NCBI GenBank assembly: GCA_035280345.1
Contig: DATEGA010000252.1
Coordinates: 5,836 to 69,835, forward strand
Reading direction: 5' to 3'
DNA length: 64,000 nucleotides
Source of the DNA: a bacterium
GTDB taxonomy: Bacteria > Sysuimicrobiota > Sysuimicrobiia > Sysuimicrobiales > Segetimicrobiaceae
The notes beneath the pieces are model-generated. The model was not told where the DNA came from. It worked only from the letters and a program-made list of their open reading frames with translations, and searched no databases. The translations under genes were made by a program, and so were the position numbers. Positions 5,383 to 52,399 of the stretch are shown here, piece by piece. How positions within the stretch are numbered: the stretch's first letter is position 1; every line of letters begins with the position of its first letter.

Positions 5383-5431
5383 CGTCGAATCTGCAATCGT
5401 TCGCAGCTGAGGAGACGGAGAGGCTAGCGTC

Positions 5432-7875: not shown

Positions 7876-8464
7876 CCTGCGCGAGGCGCTCGCCAAGGTG
7901 TCGGTTTCGGACCTTCGCGAGATCGAAGACGTGCTCTTCGACGCGTGGCGCCACGGGCGCACGATCTTCATCGCCGGGAACGGTGGCAGCTCGTCAACCG
8001 CCTCGCATTGGACCAACGACCTCAACAAGGGAGCGATTACCGCGGGGGGACGTCGATTTCGCGCGATGGCGCTCACCGACAACGTGCCGCTGATTACCGC
8101 GTGGGGCAATGACACCGCGTACGAGCGGATCTTCGTCGAGCAAATGACGAACTTCATCCAGCCTCACGATGTGTTCGTCGCCATCAGCGGCAGCGGAAAC
8201 TCGCCCAATATCCTTGCGGCCGTGCAATGCGCGCGGAGCGCGGGCGCCGTCACGGTCGGCCTGACCGGCCGCGACGGTGGCCAACTGCGGGTCCTCGCCG
8301 ACCACGCAGTGGTGGTCCCGGCACACTACATGGAGATCATCGAAGACGTCCATTTGGCGCTCTCGCACCTGCTCTGCACGGCGCTGCGGGCGAGGATTGC
8401 CGCACCGATGCCCGCGGGCGAGGCGATCCCCGTCACGCAAACGATGTCCCGACCGGAGGCGTGA
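7835..8464 (+). CDS. SIS-domain phosphoheptose isomerase, GmhA-like (GTG start at 7835 or 7850)
   Basis: TIFIAGNGGSSSTASHWTNDL ... VFVAISGSGNSPNIL ... VGLTGRDGG match the GmhA SIS motifs. Confidence 0.65.
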   Translation: MSRSAVTPSQYISSLREALAKVSVSDLREIEDVLFDAWRHGRTIFIAGNGGSSSTASHWTNDLNKGAITAGGRRFRAMALTDNVPLITAWGNDTAYERIFVEQMTNFIQPHDVFVAISGSGNSPNILAAVQCARSAGAVTVGLTGRDGGQLRVLADHAVVVPAHYMEIIEDVHLALSHLLCTALRARIAAPMPAGEAIPVTQTMSRPEA

Positions 8465-9225: not shown

Positions 9226-9241
9226 GCGTTGCGTACCGGGC

Positions 9242-10141
9242 GTGAGCAACAGGAGCGCGACGGTCATCGAACAGCCTGGGTGGCAGCCCGCAGTCGCTTC
9301 AACAGGATCGCGGGCCGAAGAAGTACCCGCGATCCGGGTCGAGCCGTCGAAGGGGTGGGCTGCGCTCCAGCTCCGCGAGGCGTGGAAGTCTCGAGAGCTC
9401 TTGTATTTTCTCGTTTGGCGGGATGTCACAGTCCGCTACAAGCAGACGGTGTTTGGGGTGCTGTGGGCGGTTTTCCAGCCGTTGTTTGGGACAGTGGTCT
9501 TCACCCTGTTTTTCGGCCGGTTGGCCAAGATGCCCTCGGACGGCGTGCCGTACCCGTTGTTCGCTTATGCCGCATTGGTGCCGTGGACGTTTTTTGCCAA
9601 CGGCTTGAACCAGATTTCCAACAGCCTCGTACGCGATGCCAATCTCATCACGAAAGTGTACGTACCGCGGCTTCTGATCCCGTTCGCGGCCGCCGTCGCT
9701 GGGTTGGTCGATTTTCTCGTGGCATTTGTTATTCTGCTCGGCATGATGGTCCTCTACCGAACGCCGCCGACGGCGAACATTATCTTCCTACCGTTCCTTG
9801 CCCTGCTGGCGCTGGCGACGTCGATCAGTGTGGGTCTCTGGTTGTCGGCGCTGAACGTGCAGTTCCGCGATGTGCGATACGTCCTGCCGTTCGTGGTGCA
9901 GGCATGGCTCTTCGCCACACCGATCGTATATCCGAGCAGTCTACTGCCGGCGCGGTGGCGCCTGGTGTACGGGCTGAATCCGATGGTCGGCGTAGTAGAA
10001 GGCTTTCGATGGGCCCTCTTGGGGACGCATACCCGTCCCGGCGGCATGATTATCGTTTCAGCGCTCACGGTAGTTGGCCTGTTGATCGGCGGGATGATCT
10101 ACTTCCGGCGGACGGAAAGTAAGTTCGCCGACGTGGTCTAG
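9242..10141 (+). CDS. ABC-2 type polysaccharide exporter permease (Wzm/KpsM-like)
   Basis: LREAWKSRELLYFLVWRDVTVRYKQTVFGVLWAVFQPLF is the ABC-2 N-terminal signature, followed by six hydrophobic segments. The start (GTG near 9242) is uncertain. Confidence 0.75.
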   Translation: MSNRSATVIEQPGWQPAVASTGSRAEEVPAIRVEPSKGWAALQLREAWKSRELLYFLVWRDVTVRYKQTVFGVLWAVFQPLFGTVVFTLFFGRLAKMPSDGVPYPLFAYAALVPWTFFANGLNQISNSLVRDANLITKVYVPRLLIPFAAAVAGLVDFLVAFVILLGMMVLYRTPPTANIIFLPFLALLALATSISVGLWLSALNVQFRDVRYVLPFVVQAWLFATPIVYPSSLLPARWRLVYGLNPMVGVVEGFRWALLGTHTRPGGMIIVSALTVVGLLIGGMIYFRRTESKFADVV

Positions 10142-10159
10142 GGAGGGCCGAAGGGTCCT

Positions 10160-11470
10160 GTGAGCGGTCGCGCAGTCCGGGTCGAAAATCTCTCGAAACA
10201 ATACGTGCTGGGGCAGTGGCGGGCTCACGACACGCTCCGCGATCACCTGACTCGCACGTTCTCAGTGTTCTCGCGTGCGCCGCGCGAGCGGCAACAGCCG
10301 GAGACGATTTGGGCGCTTCGGGATGTGTCATTCGACGTCCAGCGCGGCGAAGTCGTTGGGATTATCGGAAACAACGGCGCGGGGAAGAGCACCCTTCTCA
10401 AAATTCTCTCCCGCATTACCGAGCCTACGGGCGGCTACGCGGAGATCCACGGGCGCGTGGGCTCTTTGCTGGAGGTTGGGGCTGGGTTTTTCCATGCGGA
10501 GCTCACGGGACGGGAAAATATCTATCTCAGCGGCGCGATCCTCGGAATGAAGAAGAGCGAGATAGACCGGAAGCGAGACGACATCATAGAGTTCGCCGGC
10601 ATCGAGCGGTTCATCGACACGCCCGTGAAACGCTATTCCACCGGGATGAACATGCGACTAGCGTTTTCGGTTGCCGCGCATCTCGATCAAGAGATCCTGT
10701 TCGTCGACGAAGTGCTCGCGGTCGGCGATGCGGAATTCCAACGAAAGTGCCTCGGGCGGATGGGGGAGGTATCCCGCGCGGGACGAACGGTGCTGTTCGT
10801 GAGCCACAACATGGCTGCGATCACCCATCTGTGTCCGCGCACACTGTGGCTGAAAGGCGGCCGGGTACATGCCGATGGCGCGTCGACAGATGTCGTATCG
10901 GCATACTTATCGGCTGGCCAGGGCGCCGGATCAGCGTGGCGCAATCCTTCCTCCAATCGCCCCTCCATGGACGGCGCATTCCGGGTGGGGGCGGCGCGTG
11001 TGCTCGCTGAAGACAACCGTCCTGCGAGCGTCATGGAGTTCCGGCGACCGTTTAAATTCGAGATAGAGTATGAGATCCTGCGACCGTTGAAGGATGTCGC
11101 GGTTGTTGTGAGGGTGATTAATTCGATCGGCGAGCACCTCTGGACGTCGTGGGACACCGATCCGGATCGCTGGGATAGCGGCTTGGTGAGAATGCCGGGA
11201 CGCTATGTCTCCGTGTGCAGAGTCCCGCCGCACTTCCTGAAGCCCGGACCGTACCGCGTCGACGTCGGTGCGCGCAGCGCGACGCCGCCGTACGAACTGC
11301 ACGAAAGTGTTCTGGCGTTTGAAATATCCGAGGTCGGATACGCGCTCCATCCCGACCGCGTAGGCGTGATCGCCCCGTTACTCGGCTGGGACGTGACGCG
11401 TGTCGACGAGGCGCACGGTCGCCTCTCCGAGTCAAGTTCTGAGCCTATAAGTGTTGAGGCAGCCCGATGA
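10160..11470 (+). CDS. ABC exporter ATP-binding protein Wzt-like with an extended C-terminal (putative glycan-terminus-binding) domain
   Basis: Walker A GIIGNNGAGKST, ABC signature YSTGMNMRLAFSVA, Walker B ILFVDEVLAVGD, plus about 180 extra C-terminal residues. Confidence 0.75.
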   Translation: MSGRAVRVENLSKQYVLGQWRAHDTLRDHLTRTFSVFSRAPRERQQPETIWALRDVSFDVQRGEVVGIIGNNGAGKSTLLKILSRITEPTGGYAEIHGRVGSLLEVGAGFFHAELTGRENIYLSGAILGMKKSEIDRKRDDIIEFAGIERFIDTPVKRYSTGMNMRLAFSVAAHLDQEILFVDEVLAVGDAEFQRKCLGRMGEVSRAGRTVLFVSHNMAAITHLCPRTLWLKGGRVHADGASTDVVSAYLSAGQGAGSAWRNPSSNRPSMDGAFRVGAARVLAEDNRPASVMEFRRPFKFEIEYEILRPLKDVAVVVRVINSIGEHLWTSWDTDPDRWDSGLVRMPGRYVSVCRVPPHFLKPGPYRVDVGARSATPPYELHESVLAFEISEVGYALHPDRVGVIAPLLGWDVTRVDEAHGRLSESSSEPISVEAAR

Positions 11471-23635: not shown

Positions 23636-24511
23636 TCAGGGAAACTTAGTACGAAGGGCATTGCCGTTGAAAACGGCCTTGAGCATGACTTGACGTTGTT
23701 GTTCGCCTACTCGGTCTACCCTTGTTGCGAATCCAGCTCTCTCGAGGCGTGACTGAACCCCTCTCAAAGACGCCTCGGAGTGGTGCCACTCCACCGCTAT
23801 GGCCCGGATGCGTCGCAGCAGATCAATTGGACTCTCGAGGAGAAAATTCAATTCTTCACCCTCGATGTCCATCTTTAGAAAGTCACAAATGTCTACGCCG
23901 GTGAGGGAAAAGACTTTGGCGAGGTCTGCACATTCAACTTTCTCAAACCGGTCAACGCTGCGGTCAAGCGCATACCCGCCTGAGTGCGCTGCCAGGGATA
24001 GTCGGCGCGGCCCTGGCAAAGTAGAAATTGCCATGCGATAGGCTCGTGCCGGTACCTGGTTTGCAACCAGATTCTGCTCTAACATCGCGAAATTTGCTGT
24101 TGAGGGCTCAAAGCAGCTGATGGAGGCGGCCGGTGCGCGGGCCCCGATGTAAAGGGCAAAGACCCCCATATTGGCGCCAAAGTCAAATACGTGGCGGCAA
24201 GACCTGAAATGGACTCCCGGGATATCGTAGACTCTGTGGAGGTAGATTTCGTTCAGCGTTGTCCGCACGGAGGCCCTTAGTACAACTGTCTGCTTGTTCC
24301 GCAGACGAAACCTGAGGAGTGTCTCGCCTGTATCACGCACAAAGTGCGCTCTCATATAGCGCAACCAATCTCGATTGTATCGGACAGTTCCGCAAGTCGT
24401 TGCTATTATTCGTGGGACCATTGTCAAGGCCATCTGGAACACCGGCGCATAATTGTGTCCCCCGTCTCTTCCAGTGCTTTCTGGTCCTTTCCCCCCAATA
24501 TCAGCACACAT
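23636..24511 (-). CDS. FkbM-family SAM-dependent methyltransferase (start may be an internal Met near 24433)
   Basis: VFDFGANMGVFALYIGARAPAASISCFEPS...FLKMDIEGEE is the Methyltransf_21/FkbM signature. It lies antisense to the surrounding GT genes. Confidence 0.65.
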   Translation of the reverse strand: MCADIGGKGPESTGRDGGHNYAPVFQMALTMVPRIIATTCGTVRYNRDWLRYMRAHFVRDTGETLLRFRLRNKQTVVLRASVRTTLNEIYLHRVYDIPGVHFRSCRHVFDFGANMGVFALYIGARAPAASISCFEPSTANFAMLEQNLVANQVPARAYRMAISTLPGPRRLSLAAHSGGYALDRSVDRFEKVECADLAKVFSLTGVDICDFLKMDIEGEELNFLLESPIDLLRRIRAIAVEWHHSEASLRGVQSRLERAGFATRVDRVGEQQRQVMLKAVFNGNALRTKFP

Positions 24512-27126: not shown

Positions 27127-28122
27127 GTGTGTCAGGAATTCGTACCGAAGCGCAGTCAATACGAAACCGGCCCTCTGCACGGTGTCCGAGTGGAAGTTAT
27201 GAAGAGTGACGAAGCGACAAAGGGCGTCTATCCGGTAGCCGTTCGGACGCTACGAAATGCATGCCGCACCGTAGTGCCAAAGCGTCTGCGGTACGAGCTC
27301 AAATGGCACCGCAGCTATGTGGCCATCCGTCCACCCAAGACGAAGACCTCTCCCTGGCAGGGCACAGCGGACGCAGACTGCGCAATCATCATGGGATTGC
27401 GGAAGCGCGGTGTCAACATGATTGACTACACGATAGACGTTACCCACTACAAGGAGTGGGCGAGGCGGGCCGGATATCAACAGTTCCCCGGCTACTACGA
27501 AGGTGGACGAGGGCCAAACGCCGTTGAGAAAACACTGGAACACTATTTGGCCGCGACTTTCCTAGACCTTAGGGAAAGTGACATCTACATTGATATAGCC
27601 AATGACAATTCGCCCGCTCCTGACATCTATCGCATGCTGTACGGCTGCACGGTCTACAGGCAAGATCTCGAGTTTCCGGCCGGCGTTGCCGGCAACGTTA
27701 TTGGTGGTGACGCTTCGAGTCTGCCTCTGAAAGACGGTTTTGCAACGAAGATGGCATTGCACTGTTCGTTTGAGCACTTCGAGCACGATTCTGACATGAG
27801 ATTTATCAAGGAGGCCAGTCGGGTCCTTGAGTTCGGCGGTAAACTCTGTATCGTGCCTCTCTATCTGAGCGGCCGGTATGTGATTATGACGGACCCGGGT
27901 GTGTTGCCATGGCAGGGCATAAGGTTCGACCGTGACGCAACGGTATACTGCCGAAGGGATTATCATGTACGTCACAGTCGCCTCTACGACGTTCCTCACT
28001 TCGTCTCGAGAGTGTGCGACAACCTGGATGGCCTAAGTTTGATCATTTACGTCATTCGCAATGAAAAGGACGTTGATCCAACGTGTTACGCGAAGTTTGC
28101 CGCAGTGTTCGAGAAGCGCTGA
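27127..28122 (+). CDS. putative class I SAM-dependent methyltransferase-like protein (start perhaps at Met 27205)
   Basis: IGGDASSLPLKDGFATKMALHCSFEHFE...FIKEASRVLEFGGKLCI resembles Methyltransf_11 motifs II/III. The gene has lower GC than the flanks. Confidence 0.4.
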   Translation: MCQEFVPKRSQYETGPLHGVRVEVMKSDEATKGVYPVAVRTLRNACRTVVPKRLRYELKWHRSYVAIRPPKTKTSPWQGTADADCAIIMGLRKRGVNMIDYTIDVTHYKEWARRAGYQQFPGYYEGGRGPNAVEKTLEHYLAATFLDLRESDIYIDIANDNSPAPDIYRMLYGCTVYRQDLEFPAGVAGNVIGGDASSLPLKDGFATKMALHCSFEHFEHDSDMRFIKEASRVLEFGGKLCIVPLYLSGRYVIMTDPGVLPWQGIRFDRDATVYCRRDYHVRHSRLYDVPHFVSRVCDNLDGLSLIIYVIRNEKDVDPTCYAKFAAVFEKR

Positions 28123-28436
28123 CTTCCCCGAAAATGCGGTGAAACTCCCTCCAAACCGTTGAAGGCACTGAGCCCCAACACCGTGTTTCAATTGTTCGTT
28201 GGGCGTTGGGGAGGGTTCGAACGAATCGAGACCTCGGGCTCCGCCGATAGAAAGATTTGTCCGAACGGACGGGAGGGAGGCGGCGAGAAGGACTTGAACC
28301 GCAATCCGATTGAGCTGTCGATTTTGAGCGGAGGTACGACGCGCATCCCCGCCCTTACTGTCTGGGCGACCCGCTCGTGGGGACCGAGGCAACAACACAC
28401 TTCGGACTTTTTGGGTAGAGGGTGAGTTAGCAAACG

Positions 28437-29579
28437 ATGGCTACCGTTCGGCAGAGGGGAAGCGCTTCGGTTACGGCGCAGATTCCGCTGGTGGACCTAA
28501 AGGCCCAGTATCGCAGCATCAGGCCCGAGATCGATGCCGCGATCCAGCGGGTCGTGGGTGATGCGAGGTTCATTCTTGGCGGGGAAGTGGATGCGTTTGA
28601 AGAGATGTTCGCGCGTTATGTCGGCGCGAAAGGCGCCGTCGGGTTGGCCTCGGGCACCGCGGCTTTGCACCTAGCGTTCATAGCCTGCGGCGTGCGGCCC
28701 GGCGACGAAATTATCACGTCAGCCCACACGTTCATCGCGGCCGCGGAAGCCATTTCGCACGCCGGCGCCCGCCCTGTGTTCGTGGATATCGACCCTCGTA
28801 CGTATACGATGGATCCTCAGCAGGTTGAAGAAGCCATCACACCCCGTACGAAGGCAATTGTTCCGGTCCACCTGTATGGGCAACCGGCAGAGATGGACCC
28901 TCTCGTGCAGATCGCGCGGGCCCGCGGCGTGTTCCTGATCGAGGACGCCGCTCAGGCTCACGGGGCGGAATACCGCGGTCGACGATGCGGTGGCATCGGG
29001 CACTTGGCGTGTTTCAGTTTCTATCCGGGGAAGAATCTCGGTGCCTACGGCGACGCCGGTGCCGTGACCGGCAATGACGAGACGCTGCTGAACAGAGTGC
29101 GAAAGTTGCGGGATCACGGTCGCGTGGACAAGTACGAGCATGACGAGATAGGGTACGGCGAGCGGATGGATGCACTTCAGGGTGCCGTACTGGCGGCCAA
29201 ACTACCGCGATTGGACGCCTGGACAGAAGCACGGCGGGCCCACGCGGGCCTCTACAACACGCTGCTCGCCGAATCCGCGGCGGTGATGCCCTTCGAGTCC
29301 CCCGACGCGCGTCACGTGTATCACTTGTACGTGATCCGGGTGCGCAACCGCGACGCCGTTTTGGCCGAGCTCCGACGCAGAGGCATCGGCGCAGGAATCC
29401 ACTATCCGATCCCGGTGCACCGACAGCCCGCCTACATGAAGCTTGGATACGATACCGTGTCTCTCCCGAATACCGAAAACGCGGCGAGCGAGGTTCTGTC
29501 GCTGCCGATGTATCCGGAACTTGTTCCCGACCAAATCTCGTTCGTCGCGCAGGCCGTAAAGGAACTGGCCGCGCGGTGA
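28437..29579 (+). CDS. DegT/DnrJ/EryC1/StrS-family PLP-dependent sugar aminotransferase
   Basis: IPLVDLKAQYRSIRPEIDAAIQRV...FEEMFARYVGAKGAVGLASGTAALHLA...FSFYPGKNLGAYGDAG is typical of WbpE/ArnB-type enzymes. Confidence 0.8.
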   Translation: MATVRQRGSASVTAQIPLVDLKAQYRSIRPEIDAAIQRVVGDARFILGGEVDAFEEMFARYVGAKGAVGLASGTAALHLAFIACGVRPGDEIITSAHTFIAAAEAISHAGARPVFVDIDPRTYTMDPQQVEEAITPRTKAIVPVHLYGQPAEMDPLVQIARARGVFLIEDAAQAHGAEYRGRRCGGIGHLACFSFYPGKNLGAYGDAGAVTGNDETLLNRVRKLRDHGRVDKYEHDEIGYGERMDALQGAVLAAKLPRLDAWTEARRAHAGLYNTLLAESAAVMPFESPDARHVYHLYVIRVRNRDAVLAELRRRGIGAGIHYPIPVHRQPAYMKLGYDTVSLPNTENAASEVLSLPMYPELVPDQISFVAQAVKELAAR

Positions 29580-30691
29580 TCAACGTCGCCGTGGTGGGAC
29601 TGGGATATTGGGGACCAAATCTGGTCCGGAACCTCGCGTCTCTCGGCGAGGTGAACATCTCGGCTCTGTGCGACATGTACGCCGCCCGTGCGGAGACCGT
29701 TGCGGCGCGCTATTGTCCTCGGGCCACGATCGTCAAGGATCATGCGGATCTCTTGGATCACAAAGAGATTGACGCGGTCATCGTGGCGACACCGATTCAA
29801 ACGCATTATGCGGTCGCCAGTGCGTTTCTCGGTGCCGGCAAGCACGTATTTGTCGAGAAGCCCCTGGCGCGCACGGGGTCGGAGTGCCGTACGCTCATCA
29901 ATTTGGCCGAGCGATATCGTCGCGTGCTCATGGTGGACCATGTGTTCGAGTACAGCGCCGCCGTTCAACGGATAAAAGCCTACCTCGATCAGCGGGAACT
30001 GGGCAAGCTCTTGCACGTCTATTCGCAGCGCCTCAACCTCGGCCGGATTCAGACCGAAACCAGCGCATTGTGGAGTTTTGGCCCCCATGATCTCTCCATC
30101 CTGAACTACTGGTTGGGGCACGAGCCGCTGGCGATTGCAGCACGTGGATTCGCATATATCACCACCGGCGCCGAGGATGTGGTGTTTCTCTCGCTCGAAT
30201 ACCCCGGCGGGATCAACGCGCATCTCCATCTCGGCTGGCTCGACCCGCGAAAGGTCCGTCTGATGACACTGGTAGGGACCAAGAAAATGCTGGTGTATGA
30301 TGACGTGAATGAGGATGCGAGGATTCAATTGTACGACAAGGGGGTCGTGCAGTTGGACGATTACCTCGAGGCGCCTGAGTCGTTCCCTGAGTTTTTGCCA
30401 CGTCTCCGGGTGGGAGACGTTCTGATCCCGGCGGTGTCATCTTCCGAGCCGCTCCAGGCGGCCTGCCGCCACTTCGTCGACTGCGTGCGTGCCGGGCAAC
30501 GGCCGCGCACCGACGGCGCCTCCGGACTTCGCGTGGTGCGCGTGTTGGAGGCGGCGGAGGAATCACTGCGACAAGGGGGGCGAACCATCGCCCTGCACCC
30601 CGAAGCAGAAATCACCGGCTCCGCAAAGGGGTCTGACGGCTTGGATCAGACGCTGCACACTGCCGACACCGCGCGAGGCGGCGCCAGTTAG
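29576..30691 (+). CDS. Gfo/Idh/MocA-family NAD(P)-dependent sugar oxidoreductase (WbpB-like partner of the aminotransferase)
   Basis: MINVAVVGLGYWGPNLVRNL Rossmann N-terminus and a Gfo/Idh/MocA C-terminal domain. ATGA-type overlap with degT. Confidence 0.7.
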   Translation: MINVAVVGLGYWGPNLVRNLASLGEVNISALCDMYAARAETVAARYCPRATIVKDHADLLDHKEIDAVIVATPIQTHYAVASAFLGAGKHVFVEKPLARTGSECRTLINLAERYRRVLMVDHVFEYSAAVQRIKAYLDQRELGKLLHVYSQRLNLGRIQTETSALWSFGPHDLSILNYWLGHEPLAIAARGFAYITTGAEDVVFLSLEYPGGINAHLHLGWLDPRKVRLMTLVGTKKMLVYDDVNEDARIQLYDKGVVQLDDYLEAPESFPEFLPRLRVGDVLIPAVSSSEPLQAACRHFVDCVRAGQRPRTDGASGLRVVRVLEAAEESLRQGGRTIALHPEAEITGSAKGSDGLDQTLHTADTARGGAS

Positions 30692-30726
30692 TTTGGCGCC
30701 GTAGGGCCGGACGGTAGTCGACGGCG

Positions 30727-32031
30727 ATGGCATATCCCGGCTGCGACTCGGTCACAAACGGCGCGCCCGCGAGGCCACTCGTGAGTGTTATTATTCCAAC
30801 GCGCAACCGCGCGGAGTCTCTGCGACGCGCGCTCGAGTCGATTCGTGCGCAGCAGGGTCGCGGGGACATTTTCGATCTCGAGATTATCGTGGTCGATGAT
30901 GCATCTTCAGACGATACTCCACTAATTGTGCGATCCCAAGGGGATGTCCACTATATCCGGCTGCCGGAGCGACGCGGTGTTGCCGCGGCCACGAATGAGG
31001 CATTGCGGAACAGTCATGGATGCTACCTCACCTTTCTCGATGACGACGACGAGTGGCTGCCACATAAGCTCTCTGTTCAGGTCCCGGCGCTAAACGGGCA
31101 CCCCGAGGCCGAAATCGTGTACGGCCAGAGCCTTATACGGAGCGAAGGCCGGGAAGGGGTGTACCCGGACGCCGAGACTGCGCCGTCCGGTTGGGTATTT
31201 CTTGAGATGCTCATGCGAAATTTTGCCGGTCACCATGCGTCCCTCCTGGCGCGGCGCAGCGCGTTCGAAAAGGCCGGATATTTCGATGAAACCCTGATGT
31301 CAAACATCGATTACGAGATGTCACTCCGGCTCGCGTTTCACGTCCGTTTCCTCTTCGTGCCGGGCGCGGTCGATATCTACAATCTCTCGCCACGTGGACT
31401 GTGGCTGACCCGCGCAGCTAGTGGCATGGGGCGGGCAGACTTGGCGCGCGTGATTGAAAGCGCACTCCGATTGCTGCCGGACTCCGCGCAGTACGATGAG
31501 GTGAAACGTACCGCAAGGGCACGGGCGGTGCTGAACGCGGTGTACTCGTTGCTTTCCGCCGGCGAGTCCGCGCAGGCTCGGACGACGCTGGTCACGGCGC
31601 TGCAATCTCACCCCTGGGCTCTTCGCACCAACTGGGCCAGGGACACCCTGGCTCATGCGGCCGGCAGGCTCGCGGTTGGGTCCACGTCGCCGGTATCGAC
31701 CACGGCTCAACTCTGTGCTGAACTTCGATCCAAGATCCCTGTACGAACACTCCGGGGATGGTGGGAGCTACGACGTGCGTTCGGTTTGATATGGGCCAGT
31801 GTGGCCTTGTCTTTGAGTGACGGAGGCCGCTCCCAGGACAAACAGTCGGCTTACGCGGCCGTGGTGGCCGTGGGGATGACGCCGTCGCTCCTTGGGCGCC
31901 CAGGACTGCTACGGTTGATCGTGCGAGGTGTCCTCGGCCGCCGAGCCGACGCCGCGTGCGCGGGCCTGTACGCGCGGTTCCGGAAATTCAGGACGACACG
32001 CGTCTTCGACGGCATACGGGGTCAGGTATGA
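30727..32031 (+). CDS. GT2 glycosyltransferase with C-terminal extension
   Basis: LVSVIIPTRNRAESLRRALESIRAQ...VVDDASSDDT...FLDDDDEWLPHKL (GT-A DxD). Confidence 0.7.
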   Translation: MAYPGCDSVTNGAPARPLVSVIIPTRNRAESLRRALESIRAQQGRGDIFDLEIIVVDDASSDDTPLIVRSQGDVHYIRLPERRGVAAATNEALRNSHGCYLTFLDDDDEWLPHKLSVQVPALNGHPEAEIVYGQSLIRSEGREGVYPDAETAPSGWVFLEMLMRNFAGHHASLLARRSAFEKAGYFDETLMSNIDYEMSLRLAFHVRFLFVPGAVDIYNLSPRGLWLTRAASGMGRADLARVIESALRLLPDSAQYDEVKRTARARAVLNAVYSLLSAGESAQARTTLVTALQSHPWALRTNWARDTLAHAAGRLAVGSTSPVSTTAQLCAELRSKIPVRTLRGWWELRRAFGLIWASVALSLSDGGRSQDKQSAYAAVVAVGMTPSLLGRPGLLRLIVRGVLGRRADAACAGLYARFRKFRTTRVFDGIRGQV

Positions 32032-32909
32032 CCGGAGCAGCCTACCCCGCTGGGCAGCGTGTCCGTCGGGCGTCAGGTGGACGCCTCCTTCGCGACGGCA
32101 TTGAACGGTTTCTTCGCCGAGTGGCGACTCGAATTGGACGCTCGGCACCGATGGACGTCTACTGTCACTATGCGCCTGGTGGATGGGTTGTCGAGAGCCC
32201 GTCCGGGAGCGCGTGGAACGAAGACGGGGTTGTTTCCGCCCAATCGGCGCACTGGCCGGCCATCGTGCGGAACCTCGAGGGTACAGGTCCGTTGGGCGTC
32301 GCTCACTTGCCAGACCGGCTGACGCGCGAACATTTCGGCGACCATAACGTGATGATGTCGTACGGGTACGTCCTAGCCCGGGCTGCCCGAAACAAGGAAC
32401 GGCTCAGTGTTCTGGATTGGGGCGGGAGCCTTGGTCACTACTTTTTGTACAGCCAGGTGCTTCTACCGGAGGTAACGTTTGATTACCACTGCTACGAGGT
32501 GCCCTCGTTGAGTCGCGCCGGAAGACAACTGCAACCGGAGGTTCATTTCCACGAAGGCGCCGACACGCTCGACGGAGCGATCTTTGATTTGGTCGTCTGT
32601 AGTGGGACGTTGTATTATCTCGAGCGCTGGCAGGAGGTAGCAGGCCTGCTGGCGCGACGCGCGGGCGAATATCTTTACATCACGAGGGTCATGACGGTGG
32701 AGCACGTGCCCTCCTTTGTGGTCTTGCAGCGCAGCAGGCACTACGGGACGCAATTTCCTTCTTGGTCGCTGAACCGCCGAGAGTTGATCGGGTGTGTCGA
32801 AGGACAGGGTATGGAGCTTCTCCGTGAATTCGTGTTCGACGAAACGCGATTTGTAGATCATGCCCCCGAGCAAAGCGCATGTCGGGGTTTCCTGTTCCGC
32901 CGCGCATGA
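32028..32909 (+). CDS. putative SAM-dependent methyltransferase (LIC12133/TIGR04325-like)
   Basis: ATGA overlap with the GT2 stop. VLDWGGSLGHYF ... FDLVVCSGTLYYLERWQE are MTase-fold motifs I and post-II. Confidence 0.45.
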   Translation: MTGAAYPAGQRVRRASGGRLLRDGIERFLRRVATRIGRSAPMDVYCHYAPGGWVVESPSGSAWNEDGVVSAQSAHWPAIVRNLEGTGPLGVAHLPDRLTREHFGDHNVMMSYGYVLARAARNKERLSVLDWGGSLGHYFLYSQVLLPEVTFDYHCYEVPSLSRAGRQLQPEVHFHEGADTLDGAIFDLVVCSGTLYYLERWQEVAGLLARRAGEYLYITRVMTVEHVPSFVVLQRSRHYGTQFPSWSLNRRELIGCVEGQGMELLREFVFDETRFVDHAPEQSACRGFLFRRA

Positions 32910-33823
32910 ATCAAGTCAGGGCGTCGACTATTAATGCGGGTGAGTTGATGATGGAGGACGGATCAGCGCGCCGCGAGGTTACGCGGCTCATTCGGCACCA
33001 TTGGAACTATCGGGCGGCTCGGTTCGACGAGGATCCCGAGCACGGGCTGCACAGCGAAGCCCAGCGGGCGGCATGGCTGCAGCTCCTGTCACGGCTGGCC
33101 GGTGACACGCCGCGGCGTGTTTTGGATGCCGGCTGCGGGACTGGGGTGTTGGCGACCCTCTTCGCGGAATTGGGACACACGGTCACCGGCGTCGATCTTG
33201 CTCCTCTGATGATCGAGCGTGCGCGACAAAAGGCTAAGGATGCCGGAGTAGTGGTTCAGTACCGTTTGGAGAATGTTGACAAACTCAGCGATCTCGACGG
33301 CAGCTACGATCTCGTCGTGGCCCGTCACGTCGTGTGGACGCTTCCTGATCCAGCGGGGACCGTGAAGGAGTGGCTGCGAGTACTGCGACCGGGTGGCTGT
33401 CTGGCGATCATCGAAGGCCAGTGGGCGGCGAATCGGCCGGCCGCGGTCATTCCGCTGCCGCGTAGAGTCCTGGCGAGGTTTCGGCGCCTTCCAGACAGAC
33501 TCTTGTATTATGCAATGCGGCCTTCCCAGTGGAGTCATCTTCTCGATCGATTCCGCGCCTCATTGCGGCGCGGCGTCGGAGGCATCGTAGCATGTGCTGC
33601 ACAGCCGGCCGAGTGGAAAGCGGCCTTGAGCCGTTACCGAGAGCGCAAGTACGCCGAGACACACACTCAGTTGCCACTATACGGTGGGCCGTTGGCGGAC
33701 CAGATCACTGCGCTGCTTGCGGCCCAGGGACTCAGAGATGTGAGGATCGAGCCCCTCATGGATGCCGCGCTGTGGGGTGAGGCGGAGATGTTTCAGCGCT
33801 ATCTGGCCACGGGAAAGCGCTAA
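32906..33823 (+). CDS. class I SAM-dependent methyltransferase
   Basis: ATGA overlap. VLDAGCGTGVLATLFAELGHTVTGVDLAPLMIERAR (motif I) and YDLVVARHVVWTLPD...LRVLRPGGCLAI (motifs II/III). Confidence 0.7.
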   Translation: MNQVRASTINAGELMMEDGSARREVTRLIRHHWNYRAARFDEDPEHGLHSEAQRAAWLQLLSRLAGDTPRRVLDAGCGTGVLATLFAELGHTVTGVDLAPLMIERARQKAKDAGVVVQYRLENVDKLSDLDGSYDLVVARHVVWTLPDPAGTVKEWLRVLRPGGCLAIIEGQWAANRPAAVIPLPRRVLARFRRLPDRLLYYAMRPSQWSHLLDRFRASLRRGVGGIVACAAQPAEWKAALSRYRERKYAETHTQLPLYGGPLADQITALLAAQGLRDVRIEPLMDAALWGEAEMFQRYLATGKR

Positions 33824-33851
33824 ACCTCGAGAATCGCGGGCATTTCTGAGG

Positions 33852-34658
33852 ATGTTGGGTTCCCGCGCCGTCCCTCCGACGCCCGGTTGGTGGCGCGACG
33901 GCCTAAGGCTTTATTGGTTGTCGTCGGCGTTCGGAGCGAGGGCGAGAATCCTCCCGCGGTATGACTTTTACCGGTTTGTCGAGCATGGACTGATCTACGG
34001 ACAAATCGTGCGGGACGCGCAAGAGGGCAGCCGTATCCTCGACGTTGGCACCGAGCGCTCCTTGTTGCCGCTCGCCCTCGCCCTCCGCCGGCGATATGTG
34101 ATATACATTACCGACATTCTGCCCCGCATGCTGGCCTACCACCGGGCGAAGATCCAGAAGGTCGGGCTCCAAGACGATGCCCGCGAGGCGAGGATCATCG
34201 TCGACTGTCAGGACGCCTGCCGAATGTCCTTTGTCGATGGATCCTTCGATTGGGTGACCTGCGTCTCCATGGTCAACGGGCTGCGCGACACGGGGGATCG
34301 CGACGCGATGGGAGAAATCGGCCGCGTGCTGCGTCCCGGCGGGCGAGCGATCGTCACCGTGCCGTACGGGCCGTACGCAGAGCGAGAGCCTCCGTTGAGG
34401 CCGTATTTTACGCGCGCGTACGACGACGCAGCGATCGACCGCCGGCTGCTCGAGCCGAGCGGGCTTCGCGAGGAGGCCCGCTGGTATTTCGGAGACCAAG
34501 GCACATGGTCACGGATGTATTGGGGCGACATGCCGCGGCCGGTGCGAGAGTTTGCCTGGGTCACGACACCGTTGTGGACGCGTTTGTCGGTTAGGGTCGA
34601 CAGGACGCCGTTCCCTAACTCCGGGGGCGTCATTCTGGTCGCTCGGAAGCCCGGCTGA
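33852..34658 (+). CDS. class I SAM-dependent methyltransferase
   Basis: ILDVGTERSLLPLALA ... FVDGSFDWVTCVSMVNGL ... GRVLRPGGRAIVTVPYG. Confidence 0.6.
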   Translation: MLGSRAVPPTPGWWRDGLRLYWLSSAFGARARILPRYDFYRFVEHGLIYGQIVRDAQEGSRILDVGTERSLLPLALALRRRYVIYITDILPRMLAYHRAKIQKVGLQDDAREARIIVDCQDACRMSFVDGSFDWVTCVSMVNGLRDTGDRDAMGEIGRVLRPGGRAIVTVPYGPYAEREPPLRPYFTRAYDDAAIDRRLLEPSGLREEARWYFGDQGTWSRMYWGDMPRPVREFAWVTTPLWTRLSVRVDRTPFPNSGGVILVARKPG

Positions 34659-45539: not shown

Positions 45540-46238
45540 TCACGGCGCGCGCCATATGCCGAGCACGGACTTGCCGATTCGATAGCCCAGCGCCCTATCG
45601 GCCCAGCGTGAGCAGGGAACCAGCATTCGGTCCCACACCTTGACTTGGGCAGCGGTTGGCATGCTGCTTCGCAGCATCAAGCGATTGCCGAGAGAGGCAA
45701 GCAGGCCGACGCAGTCGAGGTAGCAGAGGCGCTCCCGCTGCAGGTGCGGAGGGACGATCCGGGCGAGGCTGGCTGCGGTGTACCGCCGGCAGTGCCCCAC
45801 CGCCGCATCGAACGGGGTGTAGAGCCAGGGGTGTGCCGGGGCCAACAGCATGAGGACCCCTTGCGGCCGGAGGTGTTGTGCGACCAGCGCGAGTTCTCCG
45901 CGATCATCGGGGATATGCTCGAGCACGTCCACGTAGAGGACCGCGTCAAACAGTTGATCTGGTTCTAGCGTCGCGAGCGTGCCCTGCACGACTGTCCGGC
46001 GATCGAGCGTCCCCGCGCCGGCGCGCAGGCGGTCCACGAGGACCGAGTCGGGCTCGACACAGACCCATCGTGAGCAGGGAACATCGGCGAAAAGCCGTGT
46101 GGTCGCGCCGATCCCCGCCCCGACCTCGAGCACGTCGCCGTGAAGATACGTTTCGACCAACCCGCGGAAATATTGCTTCCAATTCCGAGCGGCCTCGAAC
46201 AAGGGCAGCTCGGTTCCCACATATCGGTAGTCAGCCAT
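45540..46238 (-). CDS. class I SAM-dependent methyltransferase (last gene of minus-strand GT-C module)
   Basis: VLEVGAGIGATTRLFADV (motif I), FDAVLYVDVLEHIPDD, LRPQGVLMLLAP. Overlaps the upstream GT2 by 8 nt. Confidence 0.65.
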   Translation of the reverse strand: MADYRYVGTELPLFEAARNWKQYFRGLVETYLHGDVLEVGAGIGATTRLFADVPCSRWVCVEPDSVLVDRLRAGAGTLDRRTVVQGTLATLEPDQLFDAVLYVDVLEHIPDDRGELALVAQHLRPQGVLMLLAPAHPWLYTPFDAAVGHCRRYTAASLARIVPPHLQRERLCYLDCVGLLASLGNRLMLRSSMPTAAQVKVWDRMLVPCSRWADRALGYRIGKSVLGIWRAP

Positions 46239-47262
46239 CAGCGGGGAATACCTTATCGACGCCGTGGACGAACACCGGCGCATCGCGCAGCGGAATGACG
46301 GTGGTATTGGATCTCGCGCTGATGATGACGAAGCAGAGGAACAGTGAGATGAGCACCACCTGCGAGAAGAGGATGAGGAGAATGCCCAACGCCGATGTCG
46401 CCCAGCCCGGGATGGCGAGGCGTGTGCTCCATCGAAGGACCACGACCGCGACCATAAGCAGAAGCAACAGAACGGCGGACCCGGATGTGACGGCGAGGAG
46501 CCTGACGGCGACGACATCGCCAAAGACCGATATCGCGCTGAGCCCGTGTCCTACCAAGCCGATGAAGTTGAGCCTGGACTTCCCGGCCAGTCGCCGCCCG
46601 CGGCTGAGGGGGATTGCCCGGCAGGGCAGCCGTGCCCGAAACACCGCCGCTGCGTAGTGATTCCATAGCTCCGAAACGATGACCAGACGCGCAAGAATCG
46701 CGGTCGGGATGACGCTGAAGTTGCCGACCTGGACTTTGGTACCCGTCAGCAGCCAGTGAAGGAGCTGGTACCCACGATAGAAAAACTGAAACGCCACCGT
46801 CTCCATTCGTCTGGCGCGCGCCGCGAAAATAATGCTGCTCCGATTCTCCCGCACGCTCTCGCGCAGAAGAACCGCCACATCTTCGGGGCGGTCTTCCCCG
46901 TCCGCATCCATCACGACCACGAACTCGGCAGGGACGTGCTGATAGACGTACACAAGGGCCACGGCGATGGCGCGCTGATGGCCGAGGTTGCGCCGGAGTC
47001 GCAGGATGTCGACTTGTTCGATGCGTTGGAAGTTCCATTCACCGAACCGTGCCGGGAGCGGGGTCGTGGATCCGTCGTCGATGAGCAGAATACGAAGAGG
47101 GGCGGCGAGATCGGCGAGTGCGTTGTCGATGTTGGGCAGCAAGAGACTCGCGGCCGCCCAGTCGTTGAAGACCGGGAGCACGATGGTCACGCTGCCGCGT
47201 ACTGCTCTGGATTCGGAGGGAGCCGGTGCGGCCGCCGATGCCGCCGGAAGCGTGAAACTCAT
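46231..47262 (-). CDS. GT2 polyprenyl-phosphate sugar synthase (GtrB/ArnC/DPM1-like) with C-terminal TM helices
   Basis: VTIVLPVFNDWAAASLLLPNIDNAL...LLIDDGS...VVMDADGEDRPED, plus two C-terminal hydrophobic helices (LLLLMVAVVVL; ILLILFSQVVLISLFLCFVII), as in GtrB/ArnC. Confidence 0.65.
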   Translation of the reverse strand: MSFTLPAASAAAPAPSESRAVRGSVTIVLPVFNDWAAASLLLPNIDNALADLAAPLRILLIDDGSTTPLPARFGEWNFQRIEQVDILRLRRNLGHQRAIAVALVYVYQHVPAEFVVVMDADGEDRPEDVAVLLRESVRENRSSIIFAARARRMETVAFQFFYRGYQLLHWLLTGTKVQVGNFSVIPTAILARLVIVSELWNHYAAAVFRARLPCRAIPLSRGRRLAGKSRLNFIGLVGHGLSAISVFGDVVAVRLLAVTSGSAVLLLLLMVAVVVLRWSTRLAIPGWATSALGILLILFSQVVLISLFLCFVIISARSNTTVIPLRDAPVFVHGVDKVFPADG

Positions 47263-47379
47263 GAGGGGAAGGTGATCCCATTAGCGCGGAGATGACTCCT
47301 CCCGCCGTTCGATCCGTGTGGCGAATCTTTCGAGCGGCGTCCATCCATCCGCGCGGCCACGTTCGCCCGCCATGAGCGT

Positions 47380-48891
47380 TCAGCGCAGCGAATAGACTTC
47401 GATGCCCCCGGCTGCGTATAGCGGCTTTTGACGCGGCACTTCATGTCCCAAAAGCTCGCCGAGGCGCGGCCATTCCTCCTTGTCCCGGACGCTCGTCAGC
47501 AAGAGCGCCGGGCGCTGGTGCCGCAAGAAGTCTGGCAACGTGGTCGATGTTCTCAGCGAACAGGATCTCCGGCCAATACATCCGCGCAGCGCTCCAAACG
47601 CATACTGTATCTCCGGATCCACCGCAAAGTGAGGCCCAATCTCGGGAAAGTAAGTGAAAAGGTATGTTGATCGATACTCCATGTTCGTGAGCAGGACGGC
47701 GTCGGTCCGATAGGGGCCCCGGCGGAGCCACTGCGCGAGCTGCGCGATGTCGGTAGGACGCTGTTGTGTCACGAAGACAGGCGAAAAGGGCGTCTCCGAA
47801 GACACCCGTGTTGCGGCGACCCCACAGGCGACCATCGAGCCGACGGCGACGCAAAACACGGCGGTCGTCGCGGCCCACCGCGGCTTGGCGCGAAGCACCA
47901 ACGGCCAGAAGACAAAAGGCAACGCCAGAGCAAGACTGGCGAGATACAGTCGATCCCACATCCGCGGGCCTCGGAGCAGCGTCAAACCGGCGTCTTCGGC
48001 CCATAGGACGCTCAAGATCGCGAGATAGAGGCCGCGTTCCGGAGTAACATCCCTCCGTGCAATTCGAGACAGTTCCCAAATGACGCCCACGCCGATAAAC
48101 GCCGGTAGCACTCGCTGTATTTGGGTCACGGCGACGTGCCAAATCACCTTGATAGCGGTGGACGACCCCACGGCAGACGATCGAAAGCCGCCCTGGATCG
48201 CGCGTCCGAAACGAAACACGGCGCCCGTAGACACAATGTTCCCCGCGAGCCAGAAGAGGGGAAACGCCAAGAGGATCCCCACGATCGACACCGTCGCCGG
48301 CCAGTGCCGCGTCTTGATGAAGTAGTAGGCCGCAAAGAGGGGGGTCAACGCCCAGACTTCGTACCGGGTCATCTCAGCCAAACATATCAGCGGAAGCGCC
48401 GAAGCGAGATACCACCCTCGCCGCTCGGTGACATCCGCGGCTCTGACCAGCAAGTACGTGCCCGCTGTCAGCTCAAAGAGCGCGCTTGCCTCCGACAGTG
48501 AACTGCTGCTGAGTCCAATGTGTAACGGGAGAGCCGCAAGGATGGAGGTGCTGAGCAGCGCGGTGAGCCTGCCAAAGGTTCGCCTCGTGAGCAGGTAAAA
48601 CGCGAACACCGTTAGCGTTCCCAGCACGAGGTTGAGAATTCTGGTCGAAATCAGGGGATCGCGCACGACGTAGGAGAAGGCGCCGGCTAAGTAAAGAAAG
48701 CCGGGTGGCCAGGTGCCCTCGGTCGCGAAGTACGGCGACCGCGACCACCAGTACGCGAGAAACGCACGGACCGGACCATCCCCCGGCGCGTCACTCCACC
48801 TCACGAGCACGACCAGGCGGACGGCGAACGCAACGGCGACGAGACCGGTTATCGCGAGCCACTCGTATCCGGCCACCCGGGCACGGTGCAC
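47380..48891 (-). CDS. GT-C fold membrane glycosyltransferase (ArnT/PMT_2-like)
   Basis: Polytopic. The N-terminal loop ...WSDAPGDGPVRAFLAYWW... has the same architecture as ArnT/PMT_2. It heads a three-gene minus-strand module. Confidence 0.6.
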   Translation of the reverse strand: MHRARVAGYEWLAITGLVAVAFAVRLVVLVRWSDAPGDGPVRAFLAYWWSRSPYFATEGTWPPGFLYLAGAFSYVVRDPLISTRILNLVLGTLTVFAFYLLTRRTFGRLTALLSTSILAALPLHIGLSSSSLSEASALFELTAGTYLLVRAADVTERRGWYLASALPLICLAEMTRYEVWALTPLFAAYYFIKTRHWPATVSIVGILLAFPLFWLAGNIVSTGAVFRFGRAIQGGFRSSAVGSSTAIKVIWHVAVTQIQRVLPAFIGVGVIWELSRIARRDVTPERGLYLAILSVLWAEDAGLTLLRGPRMWDRLYLASLALALPFVFWPLVLRAKPRWAATTAVFCVAVGSMVACGVAATRVSSETPFSPVFVTQQRPTDIAQLAQWLRRGPYRTDAVLLTNMEYRSTYLFTYFPEIGPHFAVDPEIQYAFGALRGCIGRRSCSLRTSTTLPDFLRHQRPALLLTSVRDKEEWPRLGELLGHEVPRQKPLYAAGGIEVYSLR

Positions 48892-51482: not shown

Positions 51483-52399
51483 TGAAGGAAGAATCGGGCC
51501 GCCTCGGCGCTAAGGCTTACGTGACGGTGTTGAGCACCGATAATTATTTGGAGGGCGTTCTTGTCCTGAACGAGTCGTTGCGCTTGTGCAAATCAAAATA
51601 TGGACTTTATGTTGTGATGGGTAGCAAGGTGCGCAAGTCCGTTCGCGATACGCTGGCCAAGGCAGGCGTGCGAATGATCAACTCGCAGCCTCTCAATATA
51701 CCGGAGCAAATCCGGCTCGCAAACCTAAGTAGTGACCACCATCGTCATTGGGCTGGGGTATTCGAGAAGCTGATTGTCTTTTCGCTGTGTCAATTTCGGA
51801 AGATCGTGTATCTTGACAGTGATCTCCTTGTCATCAAGAACATAGATGAGTTGTTTGACAAGCCCCACATGTCCGCAGTGATAGCCGACATCTATCCCGG
51901 CAATCACAAGTGCGTCTACCTGAACGCAGGCCTCATGGTGATTGAACCCGAGTCGGACCTCACGGACCGGCTCATCGAGCTTCTTCCGAACGCATTTGAA
52001 TCCGAGAAACAGTGGAGGACGGCCGCCGGGCGTCCGGTTAGTATAGGCGTCCAAAGCGTTATTAACATGTTCTGGAGCGAGTGGATTTCAAGAAACGCGT
52101 TGCATCTTGACCACAAGTACAATGTCATGGCCGATCAGGTCGACTACTATCGGAGAGAGCTCGACTGCAAGTGGCGCGGTCCCGACGGTATACACGTCCT
52201 CCACTTTATTGGAGAGGTGAAGCCGTGGATGAGGACCGGGACAGATTTCTTGCGCTCCGCTGGTGGGCTCGTTCTCGATCGCCGGATCGGGGAACTGGCT
52301 GCCCTTATGGCGTATAAGGCGGTGTTGAGAAGCGCACAGCTACGGATCAGATATGTCCATCAGAGGGAGCACAGAGGCTTGAACGTTTTTGAGATCTAG
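51483..52399 (+). CDS. GT8-family glycosyltransferase (glycogenin/LgtC-like), low-GC gene
   Basis: YVTVLSTDNYLEGVLVLNESL (GT8 N-terminal motif), DxD at YLDSDLLV, and HF.G..KPW near the C-terminus. GC about 50% versus about 70% for the flanks. Confidence 0.65.

Follow-up and report, generated by a model that had tools for sequence, protein, structure and literature searches.

We analysed a 64,000-nucleotide stretch of contig DATEGA010000252.1 from a bacterium of the family Segetimicrobiaceae (assembly GCA_035280345.1; this whole stretch is called the window below), in which a first-pass annotation had pointed out an exceptional density of S-adenosylmethionine (SAM)-dependent methyltransferases (MTases) and had predicted a hyper-methylated glycan. 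The window contains eight open reading frames (ORFs) with an MTase fold, M1 to M8, five of them within 11 kb (23.6–34.7 kb). Scans of ~50 ORFs with Pfam and NCBIfam profiles show that the region from ~1.2 to 55 kb (53.9 kb) is a single large surface-glycan island. On balance we lean, with modest confidence, towards the explanation that this island is composite, that M2 to M8 methylate sugars, at least one of these methylations being a cap, and that M1 produces carboxy-SAM. Several methylated sugars are thus the most likely product, as the first-pass annotation had it, but they would not stem from one programme, as the eight genes fall into five or more transcription units and the composite island has two export routes.

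All eight ORFs are real, and the earlier labels ‘CmoA-like’, ‘FkbM’ and ‘TIGR04325’ are correct by profile assignment (Table 1). Each of them matches curated MTase profiles; seven score above the curated cutoff of one profile or more, and M4 is marginal. An independent iterative hidden Markov model (HMM) search, which covered every ORF of 120 aa or longer in the window, recovered M1 to M8 and nothing else, and Pfam scans of ~40 other window ORFs gave no ninth MTase. M4 also matches Methyltransf_23 with 21.1 bits, under the cutoff of 27; its homology to TIGR04325 is not in doubt, given the E-value of that match. The Pfam match of M3 is limited to profile positions 45–95, in the C-terminal half. 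In M8 the GT2 domain is N-terminal and the MTase fold (M8c) is C-terminal (~aa 300–555, i.e. nt 52396–53163). The PDB relatives of M5 include UbiG and the sugar O-MTase AtmM (6uv6), and PDB sequence searches with M2, M3 and M4 gave no match.

Table 1. Methyltransferase-fold ORFs and other features of the surface-glycan island (positions in the window; GT, glycosyltransferase).
Feature	Coordinates	Strand	Profile matches or content
M1, CmoA-family	8467..9225	+	Methyltransf_25 37.9 bits (cutoff 27); TIGR00740 CmoA 160 bits, 7.7e-47
M2, FkbM-family	23636..24511	-	PF05050 34.2 bits, 3.5e-8 (cutoff 22.7); TIGR01444 65.8 bits (cutoff 37.7)
M3, divergent class-I MTase fold	27199..28122 (27127 in earlier call)	+	Methyltransf_11 24.2 bits (cutoff 21.2)
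M4, TIGR04325 (LIC12133-type)	32028..32909	+	TIGR04325 79.8 bits (cutoff 80), E=1.7e-22, positions 56-233/234
M5, canonical class-I SAM MTase	32906..33823	+	Methyltransf_11 89.3 bits, 2.6e-25
M6, class-I MTase	33852..34658	+	Methyltransf_11 45.5 bits, 1.2e-11
M7, canonical class-I MTase	45540..46238	-	Methyltransf_23 49 bits, 7.2e-13
M8, GT2::MTase fusion	52396..54063	-	GT2 77.8 bits, 1.2e-21; Methyltransf_23 35.7 bits, 9.3e-9
Kinase-like protein, 546 aa	36017..37657	+	N-terminal alpha/beta domain + APH-fold domain; PF01636 2.7e-4
Conserved scaffold block	1164..8464	+	RfaH-like NusG paralog, Wza, chain-length determinant, tyrosine autokinase, HddA-like GHMP kinase, large polyprenyl-phosphate sugar transferase, GmhA-like SIS isomerase
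Wzm + Wzt	9229..11470	+	ABC-2 permease (ABC2_membrane 1.2e-18); ATPase = ABC_tran + C-terminal Wzt_C
DegT aminotransferase + GFO/IDH/MocA oxidoreductase	28437..30691	+	PF01041 8.4e-121; PF01408 7.1e-27
GT2, coupled to M4	30781..32031	+	Glycos_transf_2 2.7e-31
GT2 + PMT_2 (GT-C) pair ahead of M7	46231..48891	-	Pfam, gene spacing

The density of MTases was compared with that of 80 loci around M3 homologs in GTDB species genomes, in which MTase ORFs were counted with the same HMMs. Because these HMMs were seeded from the window's own genes, the counts in the comparator loci are lower bounds, and MTases of the FkbM and TIGR04325 types could be missed there. The 37 loci of at least 18 kb contain, with the index gene included, one MTase (17 loci), two (10), three (6), four (3) or five (1), and the corresponding 20.8 kb of the window contain five. 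The maximum number per 11.1-kb span, determined in 59 loci, is one (28 loci), two (19), three (7), four (3) or five (2), and it is five in the window. The two equally dense loci belong to a Nitrospirae metagenome-assembled genome (L082) and to the deltaproteobacterium UBA5799 (L081), and all ten of their MTases are confirmed by Pfam. At the background of 0.48 further MTase ORFs per 10 kb found in the 80 loci, 2.6 are expected in 53.9 kb, while the window has seven besides M3 (Poisson P=0.016), or eight in all (P=0.005). The enrichment is real and puts the window in the top few percent of comparable loci, but it has precedents, and the word ‘exceptional’ goes too far, as two of the 59 loci have the same peak density.

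The positions of the MTase genes tie them to glycosyltransferase (GT) genes. M3 is the first gene of a plus-strand operon that extends from 27 to 45 kb, and within this operon the junctions between a GT2 gene and M4, and between M4 and M5, are 4-bp ATGA overlaps. M4, M5 and M6 had been described as three coupled MTases; coupling holds at the two ATGA junctions, but not between M5 and M6, which are 28 nt apart. M7 is the last gene of a minus-strand PMT_2-GT2-M7 operon and overlaps its GT2 gene by 8 bp, M8 is itself fused to a GT2 domain, and M2 is convergent with the GT4 operon upstream of it. M1 starts 2 nt after the GmhA-like SIS gene and ends 3 nt before wzm. The homologs are found in similar company: GT4 relatives are present in up to 32 of the 80 GTDB loci, GT2 relatives in up to 33 and Wzt in 11, and M3 and M8 homologs elsewhere also lie among GT4, GT2 and Wzt genes. 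Since the MTases are embedded in GT operons and the loci of their homologs are rich in GTs, glycans or lipid-linked glycans are their most likely substrates.

We propose that M2 to M8 most likely methylate the sugars of lipid-linked intermediates. As each MTase is tied to a particular GT, each of them probably decorates the residue that its partner adds; the predicted pairings are GT2-M4-M5(-M6), PMT_2-GT2-M7 and GT2::M8, with M3 at the head of an amino-sugar branch that contains the DegT and dehydrogenase genes. Methylation would be residue-specific and directed at oxygen, possibly at nitrogen too, and would place a number of different methyl groups on one glycan or more rather than yield a uniformly polymethylated polymer. 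The domain content, gene order, overlaps, conservation within families and comparative counts are observed directly; the substrates, the positions of the methyl groups, the cap and the use of cofactors are deduced from them.

The residues expected in the SAM-binding site are not conserved to the same degree in all eight proteins. Motif I is canonical, or canonical for the respective family, in M1 (DLGCARG), M2 (DFGANMG), M4 (LDWGGSLG), M5 (LDAGCGTG) and M7 (LEVGAGIG), and the GxGxG pattern is missing in M3 (IDIANDNSP), M6 (LDVGTERS) and M8c (LEVGSDSYT; LEVGSDSYTRKFG). By inspection of the sequences, a candidate acidic beta-2 residue follows motif I in all eight. In M1 it is a Glu at the position of CmoA Asp89 and in M5 it is the Asp in VTGVDLAP; it is invariant in the M3 family (D156) and in the M6 family (D88), and conserved among the M8c relatives as the Asp of ‘sDVL’. 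A search with M3 found 446 homologs, which come from Omnitrophota, Acidobacteriota, Cyanobacteria, Methanoperedens, Bathyarchaeota and others, i.e. from both bacteria and archaea, and the best 120 are 48–81% identical to it. The consensus of this family is IDIAxxxSPAP and the mean column identity is 58%. The AlphaFold (AF2) model of M3 has a pLDDT of 88.5, and a class-I MTase fold is seen in all of its top 50 Foldseek matches in PDB, among them the sugar O-MTases RebM and AtmM and also SpnF, which acts as a cyclase. The M6 family is sparse (4 representatives at E<=1e-30), with the consensus LDxGSGxS in which the first Gly is the only invariant motif I Gly, and M6 has every invariant residue of the family (G66, D88, D121, D149, R158 and G164). 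The M3 and M6 families are homologous to each other (hhalign 98.1%, E=1e-13). For M8c there are 72 metagenomic relatives (45–72% identity), which keep vLEIxdxxYTrrFG, ‘sDVL’ and ‘FDCxxxTQTL’.

Because the motif I variants are conserved across the M3, M6 and M8c families they are a family trait and not the decay of individual copies. The first-pass annotation had named motif loss as a sign that several of the proteins do not catalyse methylation; no copy has privately lost residues that its family conserves. M3, M6 and M8c would thus be active enzymes with an atypical cofactor loop, given that purifying selection is strong, that the acidic beta-2 residue is kept and that M3 is confidently modelled with an MTase fold. 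Domains of the M3 type are also found within giant multi-domain ORFs (1,200–2,800 aa) that match the window GT2 as well, in cyanobacterial, Bacteroidota and other genomes (L041 9026–17443, L048 6671–12679, L051 534–7568 and L050 7199–10786).

Three related loci have the same scaffold and differ in their MTases. They contain three (L004), two (L171) and no (L172) MTase-fold genes, mostly other ones than the window, and the only MTase shared with the window is M1 in L004 and M8 in L171. L004 is collinear with the window from NusG to Wzy, at 70–87% protein identity; the scaffold block that ends upstream of M1 is collinear in L004 at 70–81% identity and is also present in L171. The L004 ortholog of M1 (86.5% identity) lies at the same position and is the best-conserved gene of the block. 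The other two MTase-fold genes of L004 encode a 257-aa Methyltransf_23 protein and an 842-aa protein. The latter (10834–13362), which is not found in the window, lies between the M1 ortholog and wzm, a position that resembles that of wbdD, and has a spermine-synthase-like match below the cutoff. L171 has Wza/Wzc/GHMP/PGT/SIS genes and an M8 ortholog (75%) beside a pair of GT4 and kinase-like genes (57%), and it adds a Methyltransf_13/14 enzyme, which makes two MTase-fold genes in 21.6 kb. L172 contains the module of GT4, kinase-like, GT2 and deacetylase genes and no MTase in 13 kb. We also note, from a comparison of window 7823–9225 with L171 18054–19483, that after the GHMP kinase, PGT and SIS_2 genes L171 has an NTP_transferase where the window and L004 have the CmoA-like gene. 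With this NTP_transferase a pathway of the GDP-heptose type would be complete, whereas the window yielded no nucleotidyltransferase.

The GC content of the window is 0.54–0.58 over 14–28 kb versus 0.61–0.67 in the flanks. This dip coincides with the part that differs from L004 and is typical of a horizontally exchanged, serotype-variable region. As the MTase set varies between the relatives and the GC content dips here, M2 to M7 would belong to a variable, cassette-like part and, as far as the sequences tell, they are not a conserved hyper-methylation programme. We picture the island as a conserved scaffold with variable serotype-like cassettes, the scaffold comprising the RfaH-like antiterminator, Wza/Wzc, Wzm/Wzt, two polyprenyl-phosphate sugar transferases, Wzy_C and the module of GT4, kinase-like protein, GT2 and deacetylase.

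M1 differs from the other seven proteins in its probable reaction. It matches Haemophilus influenzae YecO (1im8, 7.9e-37, residues 24–250) and Escherichia coli CmoA (4gek, 1.8e-29) over its full length, i.e. it is a true member of the CmoA family. CmoA turns SAM and prephenate into carboxy-SAM (PMC12783734, PMC7496830), and its Arg199, a residue that CmoA proteins conserve and ordinary MTases do not, binds the carboxylate of carboxy-SAM (PMC3663124). In our alignment (A4) M1 retains the equivalents of Tyr39, Asp62, Gly64, Asp117, Phe137, Glu164 and Arg199, while Asp89 is replaced by Glu. Arg199 and Glu164 are present in M1 and in six of seven relatives, with Lys in one. Ser66 is replaced by Ala in M1 and its L004 ortholog only, and the other five members of the clade keep Ser. 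M1 is therefore probably a carboxy-SAM synthase and not a methyl-transferring enzyme, most likely acting on SAM and prephenate to supply carboxymethyl transfer. The label ‘CmoA-like’ is right as to family, but CmoA does not methylate, and of the eight MTase folds seven (M2 to M8) would be left as candidate MTases.

The contexts of the M1 clade point in the same direction. Nine of them were sampled (60–87% identity), one being that of the L004 ortholog. On three phage contigs (L088, L173 and L175) the start of the clade gene lies within the end of a PF00145 C5-DNA MTase gene, and a terminase gene follows; the placement after the C5-DNA MTase is the published CmoA-CmoX arrangement. A further context is a phage DNA-hypermodification region with an ADDT protein, and another is a non-ribosomal peptide synthetase/polyketide synthase (NRPS/PKS) cluster. 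Since M1-clade enzymes (~59–65% identity) lie beside such different transferases, they are most simply explained as suppliers of a cofactor. On two unrelated contigs (L006 8001–9596 and L090 7001–8532) the CmoA-clade gene is followed or overlapped by a gene for a membrane MTase of the PEMT/ICMT family (PF04191), which may form a carboxy-SAM-dependent membrane carboxymethyltransferase pair with it. Another clade member lies in a sugar-nucleotide cluster (L089 1040–14186) with genes for GFO, Methyltransf_23, SIS_2, TAL_FSA, an HpcH/HpaI aldolase, an HAD phosphatase, the CmoA-like protein, two SDRs, CTP_transf_3, a 2-hydroxyacid dehydrogenase, a second Methyltransf_23, GT2 and GT4. This looks like a pathway for a CMP-activated higher sugar with a carboxy-SAM synthase homolog, and it suggests a second link between glycans and CmoA, i.e. 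that the link recurs. A search for an MTase that is a conserved partner of M1 was negative, as none is common to the window and L004 and the two Methyltransf_23 proteins of L089 are not close to any of the window MTases. In the literature we found no published link of CmoA to polysaccharides. Tentatively, and with a probability that we put clearly below even, we speculate that the glycan, its cap or a sugar precursor carries a carboxymethyl group derived from carboxy-SAM, M1 supplying the cofactor and an MTase-fold neighbour or another protein transferring the group.

Some of the methylation probably forms a chain terminus. In the operon of M4 to M6 a kinase-like gene overlaps the upstream GT4 gene by 14 bp. 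The APH-fold domain of its product, which resembles sugar kinases, keeps the AVKMP, RDLAPWN and DWE kinase motifs, and its AF2 model (pLDDT 86.7) has aminoglycoside and capreomycin phosphotransferases as top PDB folds. The family consists of proteins of ~540 aa with 45–59% identity (alignment A2) and is without a curated family name. In the window, as in L171 and L172, the gene is always preceded by one for a GT4, and fusions of family members to GT4 or GT2 also occur (P0274, P0315 and P0323). The WbdD protein of E. coli O9a first phosphorylates the terminal mannose and afterwards methylates it, upon which growth stops; the cap is needed for recognition by the carbohydrate-binding module of Wzt, and in O8 the methyl group alone suffices (PMC3482155). 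As Wzt_C is present in the window Wzt and the MTase operon encodes an APH-fold kinase, we suggest by analogy that some of the methylation is probably a WbdD-like terminal cap and not dense along the chain. At least one methylation, perhaps together with phosphorylation by the APH-fold kinase, would form this cap at the non-reducing end; elongation would end with it, and the C-terminal domain of Wzt would recognise it, as with WbdD in E. coli O8/O9a. The parallel would be one of function only. The kinase-like protein was considered as a WbdD homolog and rejected, having no PDB sequence match and no WbdD among the top 50 folds. Its N-terminal domain, which contains an ‘LRPGG’ motif, was likewise rejected as a ninth MTase (no Pfam match, hhalign 1.9% against the M6 family).

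We weighed four other explanations against this composite island. The first is that all eight proteins act on one exported polymer, giving a hyper-methylated glycan that is a secreted analogue of the mycobacterial methylglucose/methylmannose polysaccharides (MGLP/MMP). Five MTase-fold genes in 11 kb, three of them consecutive, and a density in the top few percent of comparable loci would fit it, and the many GT4 genes, the GH26 hydrolase and PMT_2 are compatible with a mannose-rich polymer. We nevertheless give this explanation a low probability, because the genes form five or more transcription units, which lie on both strands, and because export systems, phosphoglycosyl transferases and GT-C/GT2 pairs each occur twice in the island; besides, the scaffold relatives hold zero to three MTase-fold genes that are mostly others, and one of the eight proteins is CmoA-like. 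The mycobacterial analogy drawn by the first-pass annotation finds no support in the sequences either: the profile scans showed no specific similarity to MGLP, MMP or MftM enzymes, M6 scoring 27.7 bits against MftM where the cutoff is 200. A slightly lower probability still is given to the view that some of the MTases act on other substrates such as the lipid carrier, a quinone or small molecule, a protein or a nucleic acid. The nearest named relatives of M5 are UbiG, BioC and PmtA-type enzymes, all far under the cutoffs, the family of M1 is best known from tRNA modification, and the sequence of a generic class-I MTase does not by itself reveal its substrate. However, there are overlaps and fusions between MTase and GT genes, and the homolog loci are rich in GTs; no CmoB gene lies beside M1, which shares an operon with SIS and wzm in two organisms. 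Least probable in our judgement is that several of the proteins are non-catalytic pseudo-enzymes or scaffolds. The degenerate motif I of M3, M6 and M8c and the partial Pfam coverage of the M3 domain would agree with it, whereas the conservation of the variants within each family (M3 with its high column identity, M6 with all its invariant residues, M8c with its many relatives), the retained acidic beta-2 residue and the M3 model, predicted confidently to have the MTase fold, speak for function.

The fourth explanation concerns M1, which could be an ordinary sugar or cap MTase that descended from CmoA and acts as a chain terminator. M1 adjoins wzm/wzt, and wbdD does so too. M1 also scores under the equivalog cutoffs for CmoA and has two cofactor-contact residues changed. 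We consider this unlikely, as Arg199, Glu164 and Tyr39 are conserved, the contexts of the clade (phage CmoX-type, PEMT, NRPS/PKS, sugar) are hard to fit to a glycan MTase with one specific substrate, and the active site of CmoA is closed by a lid (PMC3663124). The composite explanation with M1 as carboxy-SAM synthase is thus preferred, and a number of observations weigh against it. M1 is under both CmoA equivalog cutoffs (160 vs 193.3 bits for TIGR00740, its closest profile, and 107.9 vs 285 for NF011995), and across its clade Asn90 is replaced by Val or Ile and Asn132 by Ile or Val (Val and Ile, respectively, in M1). It is 30% identical to E. coli CmoA, whose activity is proven, and 26–28% identical to the homologs of three Synechococcus phages (other than S-B43, the source of the tested SpCmoA); the CmoA homologs of cultured phages are at most 44.6% identical to M1, so it is not close to a biochemically tested phage enzyme. 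No window ORF matches PF08003 or PF00145, i.e. no CmoB or CmoX partner was found, nor was a candidate carboxy-SAM-using transferase found in the window. As to M2 to M8, M4 falls 0.2 bits short of the curated TIGR04325 cutoff, SAM binding is only presumed for M3, M6 and M8c, which are without GxGxG, and of the eight genes M1 alone adjoins wzm/wzt. With regard to the cap, the kinase-like protein matches WbdD neither in sequence nor among its top 50 folds, and its N-terminal domain is not detectably an MTase. Finally, no Wzx flippase was recognised in the island by the Pfam and NCBIfam scans, despite the presence of Wzy_C and Wza/Wzc, and the assignment of genes to pathways is uncertain for this reason.

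The remaining genes of the island are those of a surface-glycan locus, and identical DNA is present on three metagenome contigs. The coupling to export machinery that the first-pass annotation had pointed out is borne out by Wza/Wzc and Wzm/Wzt. Wza is above the TIGR03027 cutoff (196.4 bits, cutoff 180), and so is the Wzt_C domain of Wzt above that of PF14524 (7.9e-8, 32.8 bits, cutoff 30.4); the nearest PDB relatives of the Wzt ATPase domain are 6amx/6m96/7k2t/8dku and TarH/TagH. The NusG paralog (1164–1673) is nearest to RfaH, UpxY and LoaP, yet under all their cutoffs; it is the first island gene in the window, L004 and L171, and is probably a locus-specific antiterminator. The island encodes two polyprenyl-phosphate sugar transferases, a Wzy_C protein, a WecG/TagA-family enzyme, a polysaccharide deacetylase and ~18 GTs (~11 GT4, six GT2 and one GT8), as well as two PMT_2 (GT-C) proteins that make up two GT-C/GT2 pairs.

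The GFO/IDH/MocA oxidoreductase resembles UDP-GlcNAc 3-dehydrogenase (NF040723, 4.4e-44, under the cutoff), and together with DegT it would form an amino-sugar branch upstream of M4 to M6. No N-acyltransferase was found near this pair (28437–30691), and a GT2 and three MTases lie downstream, so an N-methylated 3-amino sugar is a possible product of the branch. A PA14-GH26 hydrolase (49065–50681) inside the island may have a role in polymer processing; GH26 enzymes are mainly mannanases, a hint at a possible backbone of the mannan type. Two large ORFs are without a Pfam match (24981–26822, minus strand, 613 aa, and 43535–45499, plus strand, 654 aa). At the edge of the island there is a CBS-GGDEF diguanylate cyclase (55133–56485), and this protein, a CAP-domain protein, a response regulator and housekeeping genes are found beyond 55 kb.

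When the island is compared with known systems it is of a known kind: it is a locus for a decorated surface glycan that is coupled to export, and its MTase content lies towards the upper end of the range. The polymannan loci of E. coli O8/O9a (Klebsiella O5/O3) likewise have Wzm/Wzt with Wzt_C, and MTase and kinase activities among GT4 genes, and chain-end methylation or phospho-methylation there stops growth and licenses export (PMC3482155). The window, in contrast, has no WbdD homolog, and its APH-fold kinase is a protein distinct from the MTases that lacks a coiled-coil ruler; it also has seven MTase-fold genes where those loci have one, and Wza/Wzc/Wzy_C in addition. The common polysaccharide antigen of Pseudomonas aeruginosa (pa5455–pa5459) involves two GTs, two MTases, an acetyltransferase and Wzm/Wzt, and the two small MTases alter the structure of the polymer and, modestly, its chain length (PMC3560663). 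The likeness, which is one of gene content, lies in small stand-alone MTases without membrane or coiled-coil domains in a locus for an ABC-transporter-dependent glycan; the number of MTases differs, two there and seven in the window. The O-antigen of Rhizobium etli CE3 has several O-methylated residues and a tri-O-methylfucose cap, is exported by Wzm/Wzt and involves several MTase genes. It sets a precedent for a surface glycan that is methylated several times and exported by an ABC transporter, with a smaller locus and a single O-antigen. These three systems are the best comparators.

MGLP/MMP are a poor match: they undergo multiple SAM-dependent O-methylations but are cytoplasmic and not known to be exported, whereas the window locus is built around export, and Wza/Wzc and Wzm/Wzt argue against cytoplasmic retention. 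In Geobacillus stearothermophilus the S-layer glycan is capped by WsaE, in which an MTase is fused to a rhamnosyltransferase. M8 is likened to it by architecture, both being GT-MTase fusions, with the domain order reversed in M8, for which an ‘add sugar, then methylate’ action is plausible. M1 is a full-length member, with Arg199, of the family that acts in CmoA/CmoB (tRNA cmo5U) and in phage CmoA/CmoX (DNA 5-carboxymethylcytosine), but its context is a glycan export operon. It is this CmoA-clade gene in the export operon, found in the window and in L004, that departs from the compared systems.

Decorations of the O-methyl type shape the recognition of surface glycans by phages, lectins and immune systems, and in ABC-transporter pathways small decorations also set the chain length. 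The seven GT-tied MTase-fold genes are a compact candidate set for pairing a sugar transferase with a methyltransferase, and they provide a first context for two poorly characterised families with an atypical cofactor loop, the homologous M3/M6 and M8c. If M1 does supply carboxy-SAM to a glycan-modifying enzyme, this would be a new class of glycan modification and an added use of a rare cofactor, and carboxy-SAM chemistry, known from tRNA, from the DNA of phages and from one peptide natural product, would then include polysaccharides.

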